A stretch of 64,000 bases of DNA, taken from positions 1 through 64,000 of IMG/VR virus record IMGVR_UViG_3300044557_000104. The stretch is one strand, 5' to 3'. A program made the translations under genes and the position numbers. The stretch comes from a virus (taxonomy: Duplodnaviria; Caudoviricetes). A model generated the notes under the pieces. It saw only the letters and a program-made list of their open reading frames with translations, was not told the DNA's origin and did no database searches. Positions 7,208 through 30,809 of this stretch are shown here, piece by piece. The stretch's first letter is position 1. Every line of letters begins with the position of its first letter.

Positions 7208-7798
7208 TTAATCTTCCCCCACCTTTGTAATTTCAATAAAAATTTCATATGGTGATTCTACATAGTCCTTTGATCGTCCTTCTACCTCATAGAACTCTGG
7301 GTGAATTAGATACCATGTAGTTGGCTCATGCTGGCTAATAGAGTGATACTTACCTGTATAGAAGTAATTATTAGCACCTTCTTTAGCACTAGTCTTTAAG
7401 TAATCCTTAATGCTTCGGTTAAAGATTAACTCTGTAGCTTCGTCATAGTACTGCTCATCCTCTTCATCAGTGATCTCATCACCCTCTGGCATATCTGGTA
7501 ATGGTAGGTCACTAGCATAGGGGGAATCAATATCATACCAGTTAGGCTCAGTTTGCCGTCCATCTTGTCCAACGTAGTACTGTATTCCTTCATCTTCACT
7601 GCCTTCCATGTACTGATCTTCATAATCATACCACAATACAGAAACACTAAATTTGTATGATAAGTCCATATCCTTTTGAACACTTTTTAGGAATTTGTCT
7701 GCATCTCTGTCCATTGCCAAAATATTAAAATTGATCTCTGGGTGTTCAGCAAGCAAACGGTTCATAACTAATGATTCTTCTTTAGCAATTTTCCGCAT
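7208..7798 (-). CDS. acidic hypothetical protein
   Basis: ORF coupled to the kinase gene. Confidence 0.75.
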   Translation of the reverse strand: MRKIAKEESLVMNRLLAEHPEINFNILAMDRDADKFLKSVQKDMDLSYKFSVSVLWYDYEDQYMEGSEDEGIQYYVGQDGRQTEPNWYDIDSPYASDLPLPDMPEGDEITDEEDEQYYDEATELIFNRSIKDYLKTSAKEGANNYFYTGKYHSISQHEPTTWYLIHPEFYEVEGRSKDYVESPYEIFIEITKVGED

Positions 7799-8823
7799 TC
7801 TTTTAGTCCTTCCTGAATCTTCATGATAAAATCATCTGATGTCTCTCCCTGCTTATAAGCACTAGCTTTATCAATTATATTAAATAGTCGTAAATCTAAT
7901 ACTGTTTGATGATTAATATGATCCCTCTTAATCACCTTTGGGGAAAGTCCTTGAAACATTCTCATATGATGCTGAATAGCTAGTAGTAGTTGAGCTTGAG
8001 TGTGCATTAGCGGGTTACCAGCATCATTTTCAAAGAAGTAGGCATAAGCAAGGTAAAGCATAGCACTCACATTTTCATGGTTGTAATTATGAGTTCCTTT
8101 TTCATCTTTTGAGAAAGTATAGGGCTTGCCCATATCATGCCAATATGCAAGTTTTACTAATAAATCAGTTGGTAAGTTAAACTGTGCTGTTACAACTTGT
8201 GCCATCTGTTGAGCACTTAGTGTATGTTGTGCTAATGTTTCTGTGTGGTAAGCGTTGCTCTCATTCTGGTCTACCTTTATCTTAGGTGATATCCATTGAG
8301 TAACATCAGATGTGCGAATATCATACCAATCACAATCAACTTCTAAAATTGGTGGTTGCATGGAAGTAAACATATTATGAATAACTTGCTTACCAATCAT
8401 AGGAGTATCACCCAAGCTACTACGTTGAGTATCACGAGCATTAAGGGTGTCTTCACTCTCCATGAATACTTCAATCTTAACAGCAACTTTAATTCCTAAT
8501 TTATCTGCTAGGTGATTAGCTAAGTCATATAAATGGATTCTACGTTTCCTTGATAAGTTAGTAGCATCATAGATAATGGTATCAACATCTACACTTTTAA
8601 TTGCTTGGATAAACCGTTGCTCCATTAAATCAAAGGTTTTATGAGTAATCTCTTTATCTTTCCATGCAGATACTAGATCACCAGTTAGCTCAATTCTGAT
8701 CCCATCGCTACTTAGATACTTGATATTTTCCTTATTATAATGAGAATTATAATACTCAGTAGCCCAATAAGTCTTACCAGAGCAAGGAGCACCTACTAGG
8801 ACTTCAATCTTTTTATCATTCAA
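7768..8823 (-). CDS. polynucleotide kinase (P-loop) fused to HD phosphohydrolase (RNA end-healing)
   Basis: GAPCSGKT Walker A, SSD.IR, YDATNL..KRR; H.ETLAQHT, WHDMGK, NHENVSA, HM HD-domain motifs; adjacent to RNA ligase. Confidence 0.88.
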   Translation of the reverse strand: MNDKKIEVLVGAPCSGKTYWATEYYNSHYNKENIKYLSSDGIRIELTGDLVSAWKDKEITHKTFDLMEQRFIQAIKSVDVDTIIYDATNLSRKRRIHLYDLANHLADKLGIKVAVKIEVFMESEDTLNARDTQRSSLGDTPMIGKQVIHNMFTSMQPPILEVDCDWYDIRTSDVTQWISPKIKVDQNESNAYHTETLAQHTLSAQQMAQVVTAQFNLPTDLLVKLAYWHDMGKPYTFSKDEKGTHNYNHENVSAMLYLAYAYFFENDAGNPLMHTQAQLLLAIQHHMRMFQGLSPKVIKRDHINHQTVLDLRLFNIIDKASAYKQGETSDDFIMKIQEGLKECGKLLKKNH

Positions 8824-10021
8824 AATATCCTACCTCTAATCTGTGCTTATCTAGGTTGTCAAGGAAAAATTGTTTTAAGTCTTCAAACTCCACGTTATCT
8901 ACATGCTCACTCCTTTTCTCTGGAAGGATTCTAGAGCTGTGCTTTAAACAAGATAAAACAGCATATGCAAACTTATCTCTGTGCTTAGCAGCGTATTCCT
9001 TATTTGATAAATATGAGTATTCCTCTTTAAGATAAGTAAAGTATTCTTTATAGCTATCAATAAATTTAAATACCTTTAAGAAATTATCATGTAGTGCTTC
9101 ATGGTCTTTTACTATAGACTCAATATCATCCCAACTATCATCAAAATAAGTATTAACCATTGTTTGCAACTTGGCTACTGTATCAGGAGATCCAAAGAAC
9201 ATGGTATGGTTATAAAACTTCTCTAAATACTCGGAGGTCTTAACTTTAATTCGTTGACCATCATTATACTTGATAACCCAACCTTCTACATCATGAGCTG
9301 TCTTTGCTAATTCTGTAATATCTTTAATTTTAAAATCAGAATAATTCTTTGGCATATACAACTCTAAGTTAGGAAGTTCTCCATTCTTTAATAGCCATTT
9401 TGCAAATAAATGTTTAACTTCTCCCCAGCTTAACTCGTAATGGATCTTTTTGTCATATATCCCATGAATCCACAACTTGTAGTCATTACCATAATACTCT
9501 ACAAGTTGATTATCTTTAGAGGTTAACTCCGTGTAGAATACATATCGTTTGTGCTCATACAGAAATTGTCTCCACTCACGCCCCTCAACAGTAGCATTAG
9601 TTAAGAAATGTCGTGGATAAGAAAACATATCTGAGTTTACCGCTCCAGTTGTTCCATAAAGAAACTGATACTGGTCATCATAAGTATAGTTAACTAATGA
9701 GCCATCAATTTTCTCTAAAATCGCTTGTGGTTCCTCTGGTTCTAAATGGGACAATTTAATTGTTTCTTTAGACAAATCATCTCGATCATCTAATTGGTTG
9801 AGATTAAAGAATTTAGAGTAAGGTTTAATAATAATATTGCTATCTTCATCTAAGATTAATCCACGTGCTTGTCGATACAAGGGGTTATCCCAATCTACAC
9901 CTTGGTGAGCATATTTAATAGCATAGAGATGCAGATCTTCATTTTCATTAATAATGATGTCATGATTCTTATCTCTAAGTTCTCGATACTGATCCAATAA
10001 TTTCATCATTTCCATCCTCAT
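8816..10021 (-). CDS. T4 Rnl1-type RNA ligase
   Basis: ARGLI, KFFNLN, EKIDGSL (motif I), EGWVI, RIKVKT.EYL. Confidence 0.9.
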   Translation of the reverse strand: MRMEMMKLLDQYRELRDKNHDIIINENEDLHLYAIKYAHQGVDWDNPLYRQARGLILDEDSNIIIKPYSKFFNLNQLDDRDDLSKETIKLSHLEPEEPQAILEKIDGSLVNYTYDDQYQFLYGTTGAVNSDMFSYPRHFLTNATVEGREWRQFLYEHKRYVFYTELTSKDNQLVEYYGNDYKLWIHGIYDKKIHYELSWGEVKHLFAKWLLKNGELPNLELYMPKNYSDFKIKDITELAKTAHDVEGWVIKYNDGQRIKVKTSEYLEKFYNHTMFFGSPDTVAKLQTMVNTYFDDSWDDIESIVKDHEALHDNFLKVFKFIDSYKEYFTYLKEEYSYLSNKEYAAKHRDKFAYAVLSCLKHSSRILPEKRSEHVDNVEFEDLKQFFLDNLDKHRLEVGYFE

Positions 10022-11951: not shown

Positions 11952-13178
11952 TTATTCTTGATTAGAGATTACTTGCTGGAACGTGATTGGTTTATCAGTT
12001 ACCCAGTTCGTGCCTAAAAGTTGAATATTAATAGCTCCGATACGGTCATCATTACTGGTGTAACCGCAATGCTCACAGTGATATTCATGCTTAGCATGGT
12101 TACGAGCTTGTTTATCAACAATGCCACATTTAGGACAACGCTGACTAGTGTAATGAGCGTCAATCTTAACTACGGTTGAACCTTGAAGTTCAGCTTTATA
12201 GGTTAGAAATTGTTCAAACTGGTAAAATGCCCAACTAACCTGCTCATAACGGTTGTGTTTAGCAACCTTTTCGGTTGCAAACCGTACATTAGTTAAATCT
12301 TCAATTGTAAATACTGTACCACTGCCATATTTATCAACGAGTGTCTTAGTAACTTGATGATTAATGTCACTCATCCAGCGGTTTTCTCGTTGATTGATAG
12401 CTTTCAGTCTACGCTTAGCAGACTTAGTGCCCTTACTCTGCAATTGTTGACGTAATCGTTTGTACTTGCGCCGTTTAGCAATAATATTTTTGCCTGAAAC
12501 AAAGGAAGTGGTGCCTTTTTCATCATAAGCAGTTGATAGGAAACGTAACCCTCTGTCAATACCAACTACATGCTTAAGATTATCCTTATTAAACTGAGGA
12601 TTATCTAAAGTGCAAGCAACATGTAAAAAGTAGTGACCGCAAGATTTAACTAACTTAGCAGTACCCAATTTGCCTTTATCCAGATACTTTTCAAAGCCCT
12701 TAGCAATAAAACTCATCTTTTCTCTAGTACCAATGGTATTGATAGAAAGTTGGTTTTTAACAAAAGACCAATCTCTAACAGATACTAAGTCACATTGAGG
12801 ACGACTGAACTGAATAGGCTTTTGCAACCAGTCAAGATTACGCTTAACTGAAACCCACTTTCCAGACTTTGAATCTAGATACTTATAAGGTTTCCTTCTT
12901 AGTTGAGTATTAACAGTCTTGTATCTAGCCAAGACTGTTTTAAAACTTGATTGAGTCATTTGTGCTTTAAGCCCAAAGGTGTCACGTACTAAGTGGTATA
13001 ATGATTTCTGTAAGTCACTTTGTTTTAGCTTAAAATCATGCTCAAAATAGTAAGTAGATACTAAATTACATGCTAATTGATATTGTTCCATAGTGGCTTC
13101 AAGTAAATTAGCTTGGTTATTATTTGGATATAAACGTAGTTTTAAAGTAATAGTTGTCATAGCTTCACCTTCTTTCAC
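11952..13178 (-). CDS. tnpB: RNA-guided endonuclease TnpB (IS200/IS605 type)
   Basis: LRLYP HTH; RuvC D (GIDRG), E (IEDL), D (DDRIGA); CxxC...CxxC zinc finger. Confidence 0.95.
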   Translation of the reverse strand: MKEGEAMTTITLKLRLYPNNNQANLLEATMEQYQLACNLVSTYYFEHDFKLKQSDLQKSLYHLVRDTFGLKAQMTQSSFKTVLARYKTVNTQLRRKPYKYLDSKSGKWVSVKRNLDWLQKPIQFSRPQCDLVSVRDWSFVKNQLSINTIGTREKMSFIAKGFEKYLDKGKLGTAKLVKSCGHYFLHVACTLDNPQFNKDNLKHVVGIDRGLRFLSTAYDEKGTTSFVSGKNIIAKRRKYKRLRQQLQSKGTKSAKRRLKAINQRENRWMSDINHQVTKTLVDKYGSGTVFTIEDLTNVRFATEKVAKHNRYEQVSWAFYQFEQFLTYKAELQGSTVVKIDAHYTSQRCPKCGIVDKQARNHAKHEYHCEHCGYTSNDDRIGAINIQLLGTNWVTDKPITFQQVISNQE

Positions 13179-20877: not shown

Positions 20878-22908
20878 TTAAATGTCTAATAGCTTAATAA
20901 TATCATCCTTAGTTACCTTGCGAGCATCTAGTTGGTGAATATGTTCTGATGCTACACCATCTGGAATCTCATCTGCTGAACTAACGATATTAGCATCTAC
21001 AATTTCAAGGACTTCATTAAGAGATGGTGTATGAGTACTCTTAAAGTCTAATACATTAATAGCATTGTCTACAACATTAATATCAGGGTCTGGCATATGT
21101 CCTCTACCAAAATCATGATTAGCCAAGATAACCTTTAACTTCCCGTCTGCCTTAGGAATCACTACTGCAAAGATTTTGGCATCTCCGTCTGCTTTAGTAA
21201 AATCAGTAGTGCTAGTAATTCCCTTTCGTGATAATGTGGCTAGGATTCCACTTGGGTCATCAATTAGATGCTCTACTGATTGCTTTTGAGAAGTGTCTAT
21301 AAAGTACTTAGCATTTTCACCATTATCACCATAATCATATAGCTGGGTAATTACAGGTTTATTTAACCCCTGCTTAATTCGGTAGGCTTCCGTTGCGTAC
21401 CCATATTTATTAGTATCAGTCATGTCACCAGAGAAAGTAATTGACTCTCCCTGATCTATTCCATTCCACCCATAATGGGTTCCATCAACATCAAACAAAT
21501 GTAAATCCAGATCAGAGTGAGTTGTCCATGAGACACCTAAAACAATATCTGATTGGTAATCAAGACTTGACATATATGGGATGTTACCCACAAAAGTTTT
21601 AGCTGATGTAGGGAAAGCATAAGTCAAAAAGTCATGTTGTGGGAAAATGAAGTAGTCCCCAGAATATTTACTAAACCGTTTTCTTAACTCATTGCTAATT
21701 AGTGTATTAGCAATTTCTCCACTTGAACGGTTATAATCAATTCCTCGATACTCATTTCTCTTCATCCAAGACTTACCATTGCGAATGTTATAAATAGAAT
21801 ATTTTGGTAAATCACCATTAGATCGGTATTTAGTGATACCTTGTAATGCTGTCACTAACTTAAAGGTACTTGCATTTTTTAATGCCTTTTTAAAATTCTC
21901 ATCTTTACCATGAATTACCCTATCATAATTTTCTCGCATATAAGTTACTACGTCATTCATAATAGGTGTTTTACGAGGAAGATAAACCTTCTTAGCTTGC
22001 TTCATAGCTCGATTGATAACCGACTTATTTTTCAGGAACTTACGGATTACTAAATATATCTTTTTGTAACGCATAATATTCATAGCCATAGAGTTAGTTC
22101 CATAGATAAAAGCATAACGGTCAATATAATCTTCGATTTTATTAGCTTTACCTTCATCAACTTCTATTTGATCTAGGGCATCACGAGTTTGTTTGTTATT
22201 AACTAGTAAGGTGCTACCAGTTGCTGTGTACACTAATAAGCGAGTAAATTCATCAAAGTTTTTTGGAACGATTCTGAACTTATCAGATAAGATCAGTTTC
22301 AATTCTTTATTCTTAATATCATCATAGATTTTATAAAGATCAATTGAACATCTGTCACTTAATACCTCAGCTACATCTACAAGAGCTTCAATATCTTCTT
22401 CTGATAGTGCAATATTAGCATGAAAACTATCAATCAACATAGCTGGTAACTCATCAGCAGTGATAGGATTGATATAGGTTAATGATTCTGCGAAGTCTAA
22501 TGCAGTGTCTAAGTCTAGCGTTTGAGGTTCATAAATATCACCAGAATTACGTAATCCTTCAATGCCACCATAAGTTGAAGCATAGTGGGCACACTGAATT
22601 AAGAAACGTTCTAGTTCTGACATTTGTTCTGCTTCATCAAACGATTTAAACAGTGTTGAGTTAGCTTCAAATCCATTAATCCCATAATTAGATTTAATAT
22701 AATCAATTACACTATCTAAAACTAAGGAATTTCCAGATAAGAATCTAATGGTACTAGGATCAATAAATACACCAATCCCTAATAGTCGCTTTGAAAAACT
22801 TTCTGCAATCTCAGATGATCTTTGTGGCTTGTCTGATACCAGTACACCTTTATATAAATGTAGCAAGTCTAATTGAAACTTAATTCCTTTTTGTGCTTCT
22901 GTGATCAT
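20878..22908 (-). CDS. 676-aa protein with C-terminal TerD-like domain (Rot / Ro60-TROVE-like + TerD family candidate)
   Basis: Large helical N-terminal part; C-terminal GVSW...DLDLH...GWN...FSGDMT TerD-like motifs; family recalled, not searched. Confidence 0.6.
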   Translation of the reverse strand: MITEAQKGIKFQLDLLHLYKGVLVSDKPQRSSEIAESFSKRLLGIGVFIDPSTIRFLSGNSLVLDSVIDYIKSNYGINGFEANSTLFKSFDEAEQMSELERFLIQCAHYASTYGGIEGLRNSGDIYEPQTLDLDTALDFAESLTYINPITADELPAMLIDSFHANIALSEEDIEALVDVAEVLSDRCSIDLYKIYDDIKNKELKLILSDKFRIVPKNFDEFTRLLVYTATGSTLLVNNKQTRDALDQIEVDEGKANKIEDYIDRYAFIYGTNSMAMNIMRYKKIYLVIRKFLKNKSVINRAMKQAKKVYLPRKTPIMNDVVTYMRENYDRVIHGKDENFKKALKNASTFKLVTALQGITKYRSNGDLPKYSIYNIRNGKSWMKRNEYRGIDYNRSSGEIANTLISNELRKRFSKYSGDYFIFPQHDFLTYAFPTSAKTFVGNIPYMSSLDYQSDIVLGVSWTTHSDLDLHLFDVDGTHYGWNGIDQGESITFSGDMTDTNKYGYATEAYRIKQGLNKPVITQLYDYGDNGENAKYFIDTSQKQSVEHLIDDPSGILATLSRKGITSTTDFTKADGDAKIFAVVIPKADGKLKVILANHDFGRGHMPDPDINVVDNAINVLDFKSTHTPSLNEVLEIVDANIVSSADEIPDGVASEHIHQLDARKVTKDDIIKLLDI

Positions 22909-22938
22909 AGTTGTATACCCCCAAGTATAATAAAATTA

Positions 22939-22971
22939 AGACCCCTCAACACATAATATGCCAAGGGGTCT
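22939..22971 (-). terminator. terminator/attenuator hairpin between leader RNAs and the 676-aa gene
   Basis: AGACCCCT/AGGGGTCT stem followed by TAATTTTATT on - strand. Confidence 0.6.
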
Positions 22972-22981
22972 CCGTATGTAC

Positions 22982-23108
22982 AGAGTACGAGACGTAGTAC
23001 ATATCCATAGTAGTTTAAATGGGAACGCCTTTGTGTACTCTTTTAGGTTGACGAGATGTAATTAAATAAGTTGTTTGTAAGTTAAAATAGGAACACCCTT
23101 GTGCCAAC
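22982..23108 (-). ncRNA. two tandem ~60-nt structured RNA repeats
   Basis: Units 23108-23047 and 23041-22982 share CACAA(G/A)GG.GTTCC.ATTT.AACT ... TAC.TCTCGT with different closing stems and variable loops. Confidence 0.75.
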
Positions 23109-23120
23109 TCTATGGTTCAT

Positions 23121-23149
23121 AGTATATCATAGTATTATTCATTTGTCAA
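23121..23149 (-). promoter_or_regulatory. sigma-A promoter for tandem RNAs and the 676-aa gene
   Basis: TTGACA-17 bp-TATACT with extended TG. Confidence 0.85.
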
Positions 23150-23156
23150 GTTATTT

Positions 23157-23690
23157 TTAAAAAGATATAGGTTTATTGTCAAAATACTTGTTGATAGGAT
23201 GTCTACTTATTCCATACCCAATTTTGTGAACTTCCATTGTATTAATGTTAAGGACTTCATTGTAAGGTAGCTTATTGATAGGAACTAAATCGAAGAACTC
23301 TCGATTATTCATAACACCAGCTTGCACATAATGTGGATTTCCTTCATAATCAATAAATTCCCATTGAGAATATTCCCCACAGATGGGCATACGTGGACTA
23401 CTTTTAAACTTAAAATCAGTGTTGTAGAATAACGCACAGCAATAAAAGTATCCACGCTCAATAGTTTTATCTGAAAAGGTAGCATAGTATCCTAGACTTT
23501 TATGCTTAGCAAATTCCTGAATAATAGTAGTAAAGGGGTTAATTTTGATTTTATGAAACAGCTTGTTAAGACGCTGTTCATACCTTAACTCACCTATAAG
23601 GAATGCCATGAGCATATCATTACCCTCATTGTCAAAGAAATCATTAATGTCTTCCTCATTAAGTTTAATGTCATGAAAACTACTTTCCAT
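23157..23690 (-). CDS. hypothetical protein
   Basis: ORF in co-oriented block. Confidence 0.7.
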   Translation of the reverse strand: MESSFHDIKLNEEDINDFFDNEGNDMLMAFLIGELRYEQRLNKLFHKIKINPFTTIIQEFAKHKSLGYYATFSDKTIERGYFYCCALFYNTDFKFKSSPRMPICGEYSQWEFIDYEGNPHYVQAGVMNNREFFDLVPINKLPYNEVLNINTMEVHKIGYGISRHPINKYFDNKPISF

Positions 23691-25135: not shown

Positions 25136-26557
25136 CTGCTACATAAATCTTATAAAAACCTACTAAGCATAGTTTTATTTACTTAATAGTTAGTATCTTT
25201 ATAAGTATTTATTTACCTTCGTCATTACTAGTATTCTGACTATTATCACAGAGACAATAGCCACATTGACTAGCTCTTAAGGCTTGAGGGAGTAGCCTTC
25301 CCCTTTCATTGGATTCCCTCAATTAAATTAACTGTAATAAGTTTTGTACTGCGTTTTCATCTCTATCTATGATAGCCCCACAATTGTAACAAATATACTC
25401 ATTATGTTTAGTATGGTGTTTCTTATTCCCTTGAAGGGTTATTCTATCATCACCTTGTTTAACATTACCACATTCTGAGCATCTTTGTGTGCTAGGGTAA
25501 AACTTATCTGCTAATACTAGTCTCTTTCCATACCAATTACACTTATAGGTTAAACACTGTCTAAAGTAGCCAAACTGGGATCTTTGTAGTCCTTTAGAGG
25601 CTACATGGCTCATTTGCATATGCTTAACATCTAAGTCTTCAATACCTATAGTGTCATAGTTAGATACTAGTTTTGTAGTAAACTTATGAATAATATCATG
25701 TTGTACATTAGTTACCTTAGTATAATCACGTTGAAGTTTGGTTCTCACTTCTTGATAATTTATACTTCCATGTTTCTTTCTTGACAACATTTTTTGATAA
25801 TGCTTGATTCTATCATAGAGCTTAGCTAAACGTTTCGGTAGAACATTACAACTACCTTCTGTGTAATTCAAGTGTCCAACATTCACATCTACTGCTGTAC
25901 TCTGATTGGTCTTAGGTTTGCTAGGAATATCCTCTACTTTATAGGGAATAGAGGCATAATATTTACTATTGACTCTATAGATAGAGATGGTACCATAATC
26001 ATAATTTAGGAGGTTACCCCTTACTTTAATATCATACCAAATAGACTTATTATCTCTAGGCTTATCCAGCCTAAGTTTGCCTTTAATAAACTTAATTCTA
26101 TCTGATTTAAACCCCTGTCTAGGAGCTTTCTTAGACTTAAATTTGGGCTTGCCCCAATCAGGTAATGACTTATCAAAGAAATGCTTCCAAGCATTACCTA
26201 AGTCAGAAATTCCCTGCTGTAGCACTCTAGCAGACAGAGCATACTGCCAATCTTGCTTGTTAGCTACTAAGTAGTCTCTAACTTTATATTCACTAGGGCT
26301 AGGATTATTATCTTTATCTAGTAAGTGCAAATTATACATCTCATTCCATGCTTCTAAGCCTAGATTCCAACAATACCTTCGATAGTCACAAAGCCTATCT
26401 AATTCCTTAGTCATATGGCTATTAGGGTATAACCTAACTGTTATTGTTTTTACATACACTATTCTCACCTTCTTTCCAGATAATAACAGTGTAGCATACT
26501 TAATAGATATTATCAAGTTTGTAGACTATTTTATAAATAATTAGTTACAGTTCACAG
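25136..26557 (-). mobile_element. non-autonomous IS607-like (tnpB-only) element
   Basis: No end hairpins; LE GCTGTGAACTGTAACTAA and RE ...TTTATAAGATTTATGTAGCAG resemble IS607 ends; AG dinucleotide at both junctions; no serine recombinase gene. Confidence 0.65.
25323..26516 (-). CDS. tnpB: RNA-guided endonuclease TnpB (IS607-type)
   Basis: VRLYP HTH, RYCWN, PKFKSKK; RuvC D (AVDVN), E (IEDL), D (DRDENA); zinc finger; likely GTG start near 26459. Confidence 0.93.
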   Translation of the reverse strand: MIISIKYATLLLSGKKVRIVYVKTITVRLYPNSHMTKELDRLCDYRRYCWNLGLEAWNEMYNLHLLDKDNNPSPSEYKVRDYLVANKQDWQYALSARVLQQGISDLGNAWKHFFDKSLPDWGKPKFKSKKAPRQGFKSDRIKFIKGKLRLDKPRDNKSIWYDIKVRGNLLNYDYGTISIYRVNSKYYASIPYKVEDIPSKPKTNQSTAVDVNVGHLNYTEGSCNVLPKRLAKLYDRIKHYQKMLSRKKHGSINYQEVRTKLQRDYTKVTNVQHDIIHKFTTKLVSNYDTIGIEDLDVKHMQMSHVASKGLQRSQFGYFRQCLTYKCNWYGKRLVLADKFYPSTQRCSECGNVKQGDDRITLQGNKKHHTKHNEYICYNCGAIIDRDENAVQNLLQLI

Positions 26558-29639: not shown

Positions 29640-30809
29640 TTATTCACTAGCTAAAATATTCTTAGCAGCGTTGATGTCTCTATCATGATGAGCATGACAT
29701 TGTGGACAAGTCCACTGTCTAATATCTAAGGTATGTTTACCATCATCATAGCCACAACTAGAACAAATTTGTGATGTTTTCCTTGGGTTAACAATGACTA
29801 GTTGTTTACCGTACCAATCACATTTATATTCTAACTGTCTTCTAAGTTCTCTCCAACTTTGGTTAGCAATTGCTCTAGCTAATTTATGATTCTTTAGAAG
29901 ATTTTTGGTTTTCAAATCTTCAATCTTAATCACATCATACTGTTCTACTAGTTGCTTTGTTAATTTATGGAGATAATCTTTTCTTTGGTTAGCAATCTTT
30001 TCACTATACTTAGCAACCATTAAACGTGCCTTTTGATAGTTTTTAAAATCACTTAATTCACGTGGTTCTGGTACTTTGTTATGCTTATCCCAAGCTATTT
30101 TAGCTTGTGCTTGTAATCTTCTTCGAGCTAACCGTTTCTCCCAATAATGTTTCTTTTTAGCTAAGATTTTATCAAATCTAATGGTAGGATACTTAATACC
30201 GTCACTAGTAATCATTAGATCAGCCACACCCATGTCAATTCCTACTTGATTATTCATTTTGTCTAGCTCTGATATATCTGTATCAACTAATAGCACTGCA
30301 TAGTAATTACCAGTAGTTGATAGTTTAATAGTTACCTTCTTGATAGTTCCTTTAACTTGCTTACTACCTCTAAATTTCATTATTCCTAATTTAGGTAATC
30401 TAATATGGTGGTTATCTACTAAATTAATATTATGGTTGATAGAGTTGCTTTGATAACTTTGCTTTGGAAACTTACGAGATTTAAACTTGGGAAATCCTTT
30501 ATGTGATTTAAAAAATCTTTTATAGGATTCTACTAAATCATGATTAGTATATTGTAAACTAGTTGATTCAGCTTCTTTCAACCATGGGTACTCTTCCTTT
30601 AATGGCTTTAATAAATAATTAAGATTAAAAGCACTAGGAAATTTAGATTCATGATTATTCTTATATCTTGCAATCATCATGCCTAACATCTGATTCCAAA
30701 CAAATCTATTATATCCAAAATTAAGTTTAATCTTTAACTGTTGTTCTTTACTAGGATAGATTCTTAGTTTAATTCCTTTGTATGTCATATTATATTCACC
30801 TCTTTTCAA
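29640..30809 (-). CDS. tnpB: RNA-guided endonuclease TnpB (IS200/IS605 type)
   Basis: KLRIYP HTH, RFVWN; RuvC D (GIDMG), E (IEDL), D (DRDINAA); zinc finger; likely ATG at 30788. Confidence 0.95.
   Translation of the reverse strand: MKRGEYNMTYKGIKLRIYPSKEQQLKIKLNFGYNRFVWNQMLGMMIARYKNNHESKFPSAFNLNYLLKPLKEEYPWLKEAESTSLQYTNHDLVESYKRFFKSHKGFPKFKSRKFPKQSYQSNSINHNINLVDNHHIRLPKLGIMKFRGSKQVKGTIKKVTIKLSTTGNYYAVLLVDTDISELDKMNNQVGIDMGVADLMITSDGIKYPTIRFDKILAKKKHYWEKRLARRRLQAQAKIAWDKHNKVPEPRELSDFKNYQKARLMVAKYSEKIANQRKDYLHKLTKQLVEQYDVIKIEDLKTKNLLKNHKLARAIANQSWRELRRQLEYKCDWYGKQLVIVNPRKTSQICSSCGYDDGKHTLDIRQWTCPQCHAHHDRDINAAKNILASE

Follow-up and report, generated by a model that had tools for sequence, protein, structure and literature searches.

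Two handle-type small RNAs and a HEAT/TerD-fold protein gene in an uncultured phage: a candidate ribonucleoprotein locus

The locus described here spans positions 20,878 to 23,149 of a 64,000-nucleotide stretch of phage DNA (the window; positions 1 to 64,000 of IMG/VR record IMGVR_UViG_3300044557_000104) and consists of a short transcription unit for two structured RNAs, which we call handle RNAs, followed on the same strand by the gene of a 676-aa protein. An earlier note, made from the letters of the sequence, had listed a consensus promoter, two repeats of about 60 nt, a terminator hairpin and the 676-aa gene, and each of these was found again, at the following positions.

23121–23149, minus strand: promoter of sigma-70 type for the RNA unit (boxes TTGACA and TATACT spaced by 17 nt, with a TG extension; 11 of 12 matches)
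23047–23108, minus strand: handle RNA 1 (helix P1 of 6 bp, ACAA loop facing a bulged C, helix P2 of 6 bp)
22982–23041, minus strand: handle RNA 2 (P1 of 7 bp, ACAA loop facing a bulged C, P2 of 6 bp)
22938–22972, minus strand: intrinsic terminator of the RNA unit (16-bp stem and T run)
20878–22908, minus strand: gene of the 676-aa protein (open reading frame, ORF)
21664–22908, minus strand: N-terminal all-helical domain, HEAT/ARM-like solenoid (residues 1–415)
21064–21561, minus strand: TerD-fold beta-sandwich (residues ~450–615)

About 12 nt separate the end of the promoter's −10 box from helix P1 of RNA 1. Above P2, RNA 1 continues with GUUCCU, a mostly unpaired apical region of 33 nt and UAC, and it scores 66.6 bits with a first covariance model (R1, built from copies of two phage groups) and 57.7 bits with a second (R2, used for searches of whole records). 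RNA 2, whose apical region contains a short CCAU/AUGG helix (the 'GGA type' of module), scores 54.4 and 50.2 bits with R1 and R2, respectively. The apical region closed by P2 measures 29–33 nt in the two RNAs. Their P1 and P2 sequences differ and the pairing is retained, and they share a 23-nt core, which extends from the internal loop to where the apical loop begins. This core has exactly two occurrences in the window and no others across the 118 kb of the genome, the number expected being 0. The terminator (fold energy −23.2 kcal/mol, z −5.9) is separated by 30 nt, including a G-rich ribosome-binding site, from the start codon of the 676-aa gene, for which no clear separate promoter was found. 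The order of array, terminator, ribosome-binding site and gene recurs in the loci L005 and L011, and the arrays of L011 and of the large phage G001 have equivalent promoters in front of them. A strong promoter is predicted to drive a short two-RNA unit that ends at an intrinsic terminator.

These RNAs belong to a widespread RNA family that is undescribed and absent from Rfam. The site (22850–23250) gave no Rfam match at gathering thresholds or at E ≤ 10 and no Rfam tRNA match, and ARAGORN reported no tRNA gene in the window or in the whole genome. In the consensus handle, P1 ends in a G-C pair and is followed by an A and an A-rich loop, P2 ends in a G-U pair, and an invariant UCCU stands above it; the return strand reads UAC, the remainder of P2, a C or A bulge, and P1. 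The internal loop consists of 3–4 A-rich nucleotides on the 5′ side (AAAA, AAA, AAUA, AUA, AGAA, AUAA or ACAA across the family) opposite the single C or A bulge on the 3′ strand. Most copies leave the UCCU unpaired, and its sequence complements that of ribosome-binding sites. On this constant handle the apical module is freely variable.

The proposal of the earlier note that the stems change in sequence and still pair, that the internal loop and bulge are kept, and that the apical loops are unrelated was borne out by covariation. RNAalifold, applied to 11 aligned copies, recovered both P1 and P2, with compensatory changes at 10 of the 13 pairs. Among 44 distinct copies, 93.5% of cells are paired, against 27–46% when the partner strand is slid, and 169 cells have changed on both sides; the covariation score of 0.72 compares with 0.22 for shuffled alignments and 0.06–0.18 for slid partners, and none of 500 shuffles reached it. 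Because G-U pairs help to keep the pairing and form only on the gene's strand, and because all copies lie on that strand, repeats acting at the level of DNA were ruled out.

The genes for the RNA and the protein co-occur, nearly always adjacent and on the same strand, across very distant phages. A covariance-model search upstream of homologues, which had been named beforehand as a test, found the handle, and it did so in groups that had contributed nothing to the model: R1 detected untrained copies beside homologues in the Synechococcus phage S-CRM01 (close to g174, on both its upstream and its downstream side), in the gut phage Phass-1 (some of them downstream of the gene) and in the loci L011-13. 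Further copies were found in about 30 metagenome loci and in one Limosilactobacillus agrestimuris contig, where each of the 54 hits had the orientation of the gene and almost all fell 100–400 nt upstream of the start codon. The handle recurs, in 1 to 6 copies, beside homologues that are only 23–36% identical; in five viral contigs, for example, a homologue of 31% identity is preceded by three tandem copies of the same RNA design, which stand directly after two tRNA genes and ahead of a terminator and the gene. The RNA was found in every one of the nine whole phage records that have the protein, its hits being limited to one or two loci in each. The protein was present in 1 of 151 Lactobacillaceae genomes, and strong RNA matches occurred only there, directly upstream of the gene. 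A marginal RNA match in G247, a protein-less genome of this set, lacks the closing G-U ... A-C pairs and was taken as chance. The phage LfeInf gave neither a protein match to the family profile nor a significant RNA match, and tblastn of three family members against deposited phages returned only S-CRM01, S-CBWM1 and Phass-1.

The RNAs are also found apart from the gene. Two large phages carry them as an operon of their own, composed of a promoter, two RNAs and a terminator; the promoter-RNA-RNA-terminator operon of G001 lies about 36 kb from the protein gene, and that of G154 is likewise distant. In Phass-1, extra copies are interspersed between tRNA genes (Cys, suppressor and Glu; Val and Leu), on the tRNA strand and far from the protein gene. 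The location of RNAs away from the gene, in their own operons or in tRNA arrays, argues that they are independent genes that travel with the protein gene, and makes a cis-acting leader unlikely. Given the strong terminator between the RNAs and the gene in the window, and the separation of RNA operon and gene by 36 kb elsewhere, co-transcription of the two is uncertain.

The protein belongs to a large, unannotated family that is absent from Pfam. Its relatives at E ≤ 1e-3 comprise 1086 cluster representatives, all of about 600–700 aa, and the family as a whole amounts to more than a thousand 50%-identity clusters, mostly viral; the nearest ESM Atlas clusters are 75–88% viral. The 676-aa protein falls into no Pfam, PHROG or NCBIfam family and has no sequence match in PDB, and none of the homologues checked, including the 64 used for alignment, is named or has a Pfam domain. 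An AlphaFold model built on these 64 homologues (pLDDT 88, pTM 0.88) comprises an all-helical N-terminal domain, a beta-sandwich (~450–615) and a short helical tail. Fold searches with the model identified the beta-sandwich as a TerD fold, in agreement with the TerD-like C-terminus that had been recognized from sequence motifs; the Pfam TerD profile (PF02342) gave no match at E ≤ 10, and no known catalytic fold was found in the fold searches. Residues of the TerD-fold domain that are invariant in 64 family sequences include D466, D468, G494, D495 and E507, and Y109, N200, N299 and K437 are family-invariant polar residues.

Remote structural look-alikes in BFVD include H6SUA9, I7JBZ3 and A0A291I9M6, which are proteins of the Campylobacter phages IBB35 and CP21 and of the Lactobacillus phage LpeD (460–750 aa; E 2e-14 to 6e-16; 11–13% identity; full-length for IBB35 and LpeD). 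They were not counted as family members; LpeD has no protein match to the family profile and only a weak, non-significant RNA match (E 0.29). The gene was also considered as a Rad50/SbcC partner of the SbcD-like gene downstream of it, and this was rejected because reading of the translation revealed no Walker A motif and because there was no SMC- or AAA-type Pfam match.

In many relatives, the variable module of the RNA resembles part of a tRNA. Apical regions with a 4–5-bp stem and a 7-nt loop that follows anticodon-loop rules account for 12 of 53 distinct modules, where 2.9 are expected, and the strict form of the loop (C, U, three bases, A, then A or C) for 7 of 53, where 0.19 are expected; neither count was reached in any of 2000 shuffles. 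The module loops equal those of tRNA-Lys(UUU), tRNA-Cys(GCA), tRNA-Asn(GUU) and tRNA-Phe(GAA), and some are identical to the tRNA-Lys and tRNA-Cys loops of the phages themselves, but are mounted on different stems. One S-CRM01 copy has a T-arm-like hairpin as its module, and another S-CRM01 member (L003:3616-3730), which by our reading stands on the same handle, scores 35.9 bits on the Rfam YrlA model by virtue of its T and D arms and an acceptor-like arm. This score may be compared with the 39.9 bits of a genuine YrlA that directly precedes a genuine Rsr gene, and with the Rfam threshold of 69. The arrays of relatives sit in clusters of tRNA and tmRNA genes. A second type of module, in which GGA or GGGA is able to pair with the UCC of the handle, is represented in 15 of 53 cases (6 expected) and includes RNA 2 of the window. 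RNA 1 contains a loop-like CUUACAA that is not carried by a stem.

The genetic coupling of RNA and protein across distant homologues makes a ribonucleoprotein with interchangeable-loop RNAs, which the earlier note had already put forward, the best reading of the locus. We consider it probable, at roughly 60%, that the locus encodes both halves of a phage ribonucleoprotein that is analogous to Ro60/Y RNA and built on a different protein; our search of the literature found no description of this protein family or these RNAs. In such a particle, the protein would bind the RNA handle, as the gene linkage suggests, and would present the apical module to other factors. The terminator would keep the RNA in excess, with the protein being made by read-through. 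As modules of relatives copy parts of tRNAs and their arrays lie in tRNA and tmRNA clusters, the particle would most likely act on tRNA-directed enzymes, candidate roles being that of a decoy or sponge for host anticodon nucleases and that of a platform for RNA repair or quality control, like Ro60 with Y RNA. A more specific and decidedly tentative proposal is that the HEAT+TerD protein grips the handle and displays tRNA-part modules as decoys or baits for host immune nucleases that target tRNA, or for tRNA-handling enzymes, in which case the system may be a second, independently built machine of the Ro60/Y-RNA type.

Several observations weigh against a ribonucleoprotein of this kind. Contact between protein and RNA is something that we infer from gene linkage alone, and TerD domains are familiar from Ca-binding stress proteins and are not known to bind RNA. 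One group of homologues (L019, L020 and L022) has no RNA in the 3 kb upstream of the gene, which was the stretch examined. Folded singly, the two RNAs of the window are no more stable than chance (z −0.94 and −1.70), and as these fold energies are non-significant, the evidence for RNA structure is comparative. Pfam searches of ten neighbouring ORFs revealed no shared partner, no conserved enzyme partner and no RtcB. Finally, neither RNA of the window is a clear tRNA mimic and the phage has no tRNA genes in its 118 kb, so that a tRNA-related function is extrapolated from relatives.

The earlier note had gone further and assigned the protein to the Ro60/TROVE family, as a 'Rot' fusion of Ro and TerD. 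Membership in the Ro60 family is not supported by our results, although a very remote relation of the helical domain is possible, and the term 'ROT/TROVE' is used in PMC7824862 as a name for the TROVE module itself. The corresponding alternative takes the protein for a true Ro60 (TROVE) orthologue, extremely diverged and with TerD in the place of its former vWA domain, and the RNAs for genuine Y RNAs; it appears to us improbable. It would account for the HEAT-like solenoid of the N-terminal domain, a feature shared with TROVE, but Foldseek and VIA searches with the whole model or the N-terminal domain model listed no Ro60 chain, and the helical domain gave only generic HEAT/ARM-like matches. 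The structural comparison with Ro60 and TerD that had been suggested gave a match for TerD; the helical domain may still be a Ro60-like ring of HEAT repeats. Likewise, no Pfam or fold match to a vWA domain with a MIDAS was obtained, the C-terminal domain being the TerD-fold beta-sandwich. At the sequence level, neither the protein nor any of the 64 homologues matched Pfam TROVE (PF05731), even at E 10, and a PF05731 search of the whole phage gave no match; the 64-sequence family profile matched no PDB sequence at E ≤ 10; and when hhalign was used to compare the family alignment with 16 aligned Rsr sequences, gathered from the relatives of two genuine TROVE genes, the probability was 0.6% (E 0.097, 70 columns). 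A canonical TROVE gene was found in none of six genomes with the RNA-protein system, in a search in which the controls (Deinococcus and Bacteroides) did score, and this counts in favour of a diverged orthologue.

The RNAs give a similarly divided picture of this alternative. Their 5′ and 3′ ends form a stem-bulge-stem, backed by covariation, like that of Y RNAs (PMC12135203), and the YrlA-like tRNA domain of S-CRM01 stands on the same handle, but the handle model does not detect true YrlA loci, and it is the 3′ strand, instead of the 5′ strand, that carries the bulge. The CGAA or GNCGAAN0-1G motif that typifies the bulged region of Y RNA and YrlA (PMC4201824, PMC12135203) is missing from the window RNAs, which read C-ACAA-R there. 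The invariant GUUCCUA is one base off the GUUCCGA at the 5′ end of the genuine YrlA that we fetched and resembles the Ro-contacted GGUCCGA of vertebrates (PMC4201824); we regard this 7-mer resemblance as a weak lead and not as evidence of homology. The RNAs might instead be independent small RNAs, either tRNA-like or regulators with a CU-rich UCCU seed, that are not stoichiometrically bound by the protein, the latter being an enzyme that makes, modifies or processes them or a co-regulated neighbour. Their own promoter and terminator, the Phass-1 copies among tRNA genes far from the protein gene, and the mostly unpaired UCCU with its complementarity to ribosome-binding sites all agree with such a role, and the invariant polar residues Y109, N200, N299 and K437 could be catalytic. 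We nevertheless judge it an unlikely account, since same-strand adjacency across homologues of 23–36% identity and one-to-one co-occurrence fit a physical partnership better, and since the fold searches found no known catalytic fold. Least probable is that the repeats are a cis-acting leader, through which the protein, by binding its own 5′ leader, controls read-through of the terminator as an autoregulatory attenuator. The conserved order of array, terminator, ribosome-binding site and gene, and the gene's lack of a clear promoter of its own, are what one would expect of a leader, but the distant RNA operons of G001 and G154, the copies downstream of the gene in S-CRM01 and Phass-1 and those within tRNA arrays are not, and up to six diversified copies are hard to reconcile with a leader. 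A ribonucleoprotein of handle RNAs and HEAT/TerD protein remains our preferred interpretation.

The record that contains the locus is that of an uncultured Lactobacillus-type phage, a Herelleviridae-type myophage, whose DNA polymerase shares 46% identity with the enzyme of its closest cultured relative, the Lactobacillus (Limosilactobacillus) fermentum phage LfeInf. Downstream of the 676-aa gene lie genes for an SbcD-like nuclease, a helicase and DNA polymerase A, and upstream of the RNA unit lie small ORFs, PnuC and a TnpB element. The earlier note had suggested that the ribonucleoprotein works with an Rnl1/kinase-HD pair, and both genes are indeed present in the window.

7768–8823, minus strand: kinase+HD gene (PF13671 and PF01966)
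8816–10021, minus strand: Rnl1-type RNA ligase gene (PF09511)

These two genes overlap by 8 nt and represent a T4-like tRNA-repair pair in a phage of 118 kb without tRNA genes. They lie 11–13 kb from the 676-aa gene, on the same strand, and when Rnl1, kinase-HD and neighbours of the window were compared by tblastn with all fetched loci, neither gene of the pair turned up near any other homologue. Their presence fits a tRNA-related function; the connection is uncertain, as the linkage is not conserved. The only synteny found in this comparison was with the metagenome contig L021 (L021:358-4344), which carries a handle RNA, a TerD-family gene, a 209-aa ORF, and SbcD and helicase genes of 49–53% identity. 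Two Lactobacillaceae-type relatives have a different arrangement, in which an ORF of ~565 aa without a Pfam family starts at, or 4 nt past, the stop of the TerD-family gene (L005:6055-7752 and L015:5017-6705); this ORF may be a further partner in that clade, whereas the window has SbcD at that place. The TnpB gene (OrfB_IS605 and Cas12f-like TNB; 25222-26516, minus strand) lies between pnuC and the upstream genes, with a Transposase-1 RNA match (RF03014, 43.2 bits) just downstream of it, and two ORFs of ~400 aa at 11952-13178 and 29640-30809 may be further TnpB candidates.

Some tRNA clusters of relatives contain additional genes of interest. In Phass-1, a full-length tmRNA (Rfam RF00023, 77.9 bits; OQ749652.1, about 92139-92577; L004:7482-7920) stands directly after the six-copy array, in a stretch of the record that is unannotated, and was not reported by ARAGORN. 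S-CRM01 has about six handle RNAs (L003 3510-3966 and 5819-5878) within its tRNA cluster, and its ORF g173c (L003:3785-3931, minus strand), which runs antisense over the array upstream of g174, was probably called in error. The 61-kb phage L005 carries, upstream of its array of three RNAs, a long tRNA that ARAGORN called as a suppressor (anticodon UUA; L005:2164-2253) and a tRNA-like gene whose anticodon was called with four bases (CCCC; L005:3673-3747).

If the RNA and protein form a particle, the locus introduces two new families, one of RNAs that Rfam lacks and one of proteins that Pfam lacks, and the logic of Ro60 and Y RNA would have been repeated with different parts. A protein-held handle with a displayed tRNA mimic would then be a recurrent solution in phage-host conflict and, at the same time, a modular scaffold on which RNA baits could be displayed. 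It would also explain why the tRNA clusters of phages contain unannotated gaps and spurious ORFs, g173c of S-CRM01 among them. The anticodon-loop modules (Lys, Cys, Asn and Phe) indicate targets that can be tested, anticodon nucleases for example, and experiments could start from S-CRM01 and S-CBWM1, whose Synechococcus hosts are named.

A classical TerD protein measures about 190 aa, and its gene belongs to a tellurite or stress operon. In comparison with this family (PF02342; PDB 2kxt, 3ibz and 2qz7), the domain described here is fused behind a helical domain of 415 residues, is linked to RNA genes and has no Pfam TerD match. The closest analogy is with Ro60 (Rsr; TROVE and vWA) and its YrlA/YrlB RNAs (RF02553; Chen et al. 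2014, PMC4201824), in that a large helical-repeat protein, with a C-terminal domain that binds metal in Ro60 and may do so here, is encoded beside one or several small RNA genes, the two ends of the RNA pair in a stem-bulge-stem, its variable part can mimic a tRNA, and phages carry the system; the single S-CRM01 member mentioned above scores near a real YrlA (35.9 vs 39.9 bits). In contrast to Ro60, HMM, profile-profile and fold searches of the phage protein gave no sign of TROVE, and TerD takes the place of vWA. The handle RNAs differ from Y RNAs in lacking CGAA/GNCGAA, in having a loop with 3–4 nt in its 5′ strand opposite 1 nt in its 3′ strand, and in carrying an invariant GUUCCU above P2, and from YrlA in that Rfam does not match the window RNAs and the handle model misses true YrlA loci. 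Thermus phage phiLo provides a further parallel, as its Ro60 gene is likewise preceded by two stem-bulge-stem RNAs, Yrl1 and Yrl2, located just upstream (PMC12135203). The phiLo protein binds RNA, its crystal structure has been reported, and it has been proposed to modulate host RNA decay or defence (PMC12135203). However, phiLo Ro60 is a canonical HEAT-repeat doughnut with a vWA domain and its RNAs contain CGAA, neither of which was found in the window system.

Repair by T4 Rnl1 and Pnkp is a phage answer to anticodon nucleases. Phage tRNAs, for their part, neutralise PARIS (PMC11464382). The window RNAs are not tRNAs (ARAGORN reported none) and lack D and T arms and a CCA end; a decoy role for them is conjectural. 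The likeness to such answers lies in the relatives, whose RNAs show the anticodon loops of tRNA-Lys, tRNA-Cys, tRNA-Asn and tRNA-Phe from within phage tRNA clusters, and in the window phage itself, which carries the Rnl1 and kinase+HD genes.

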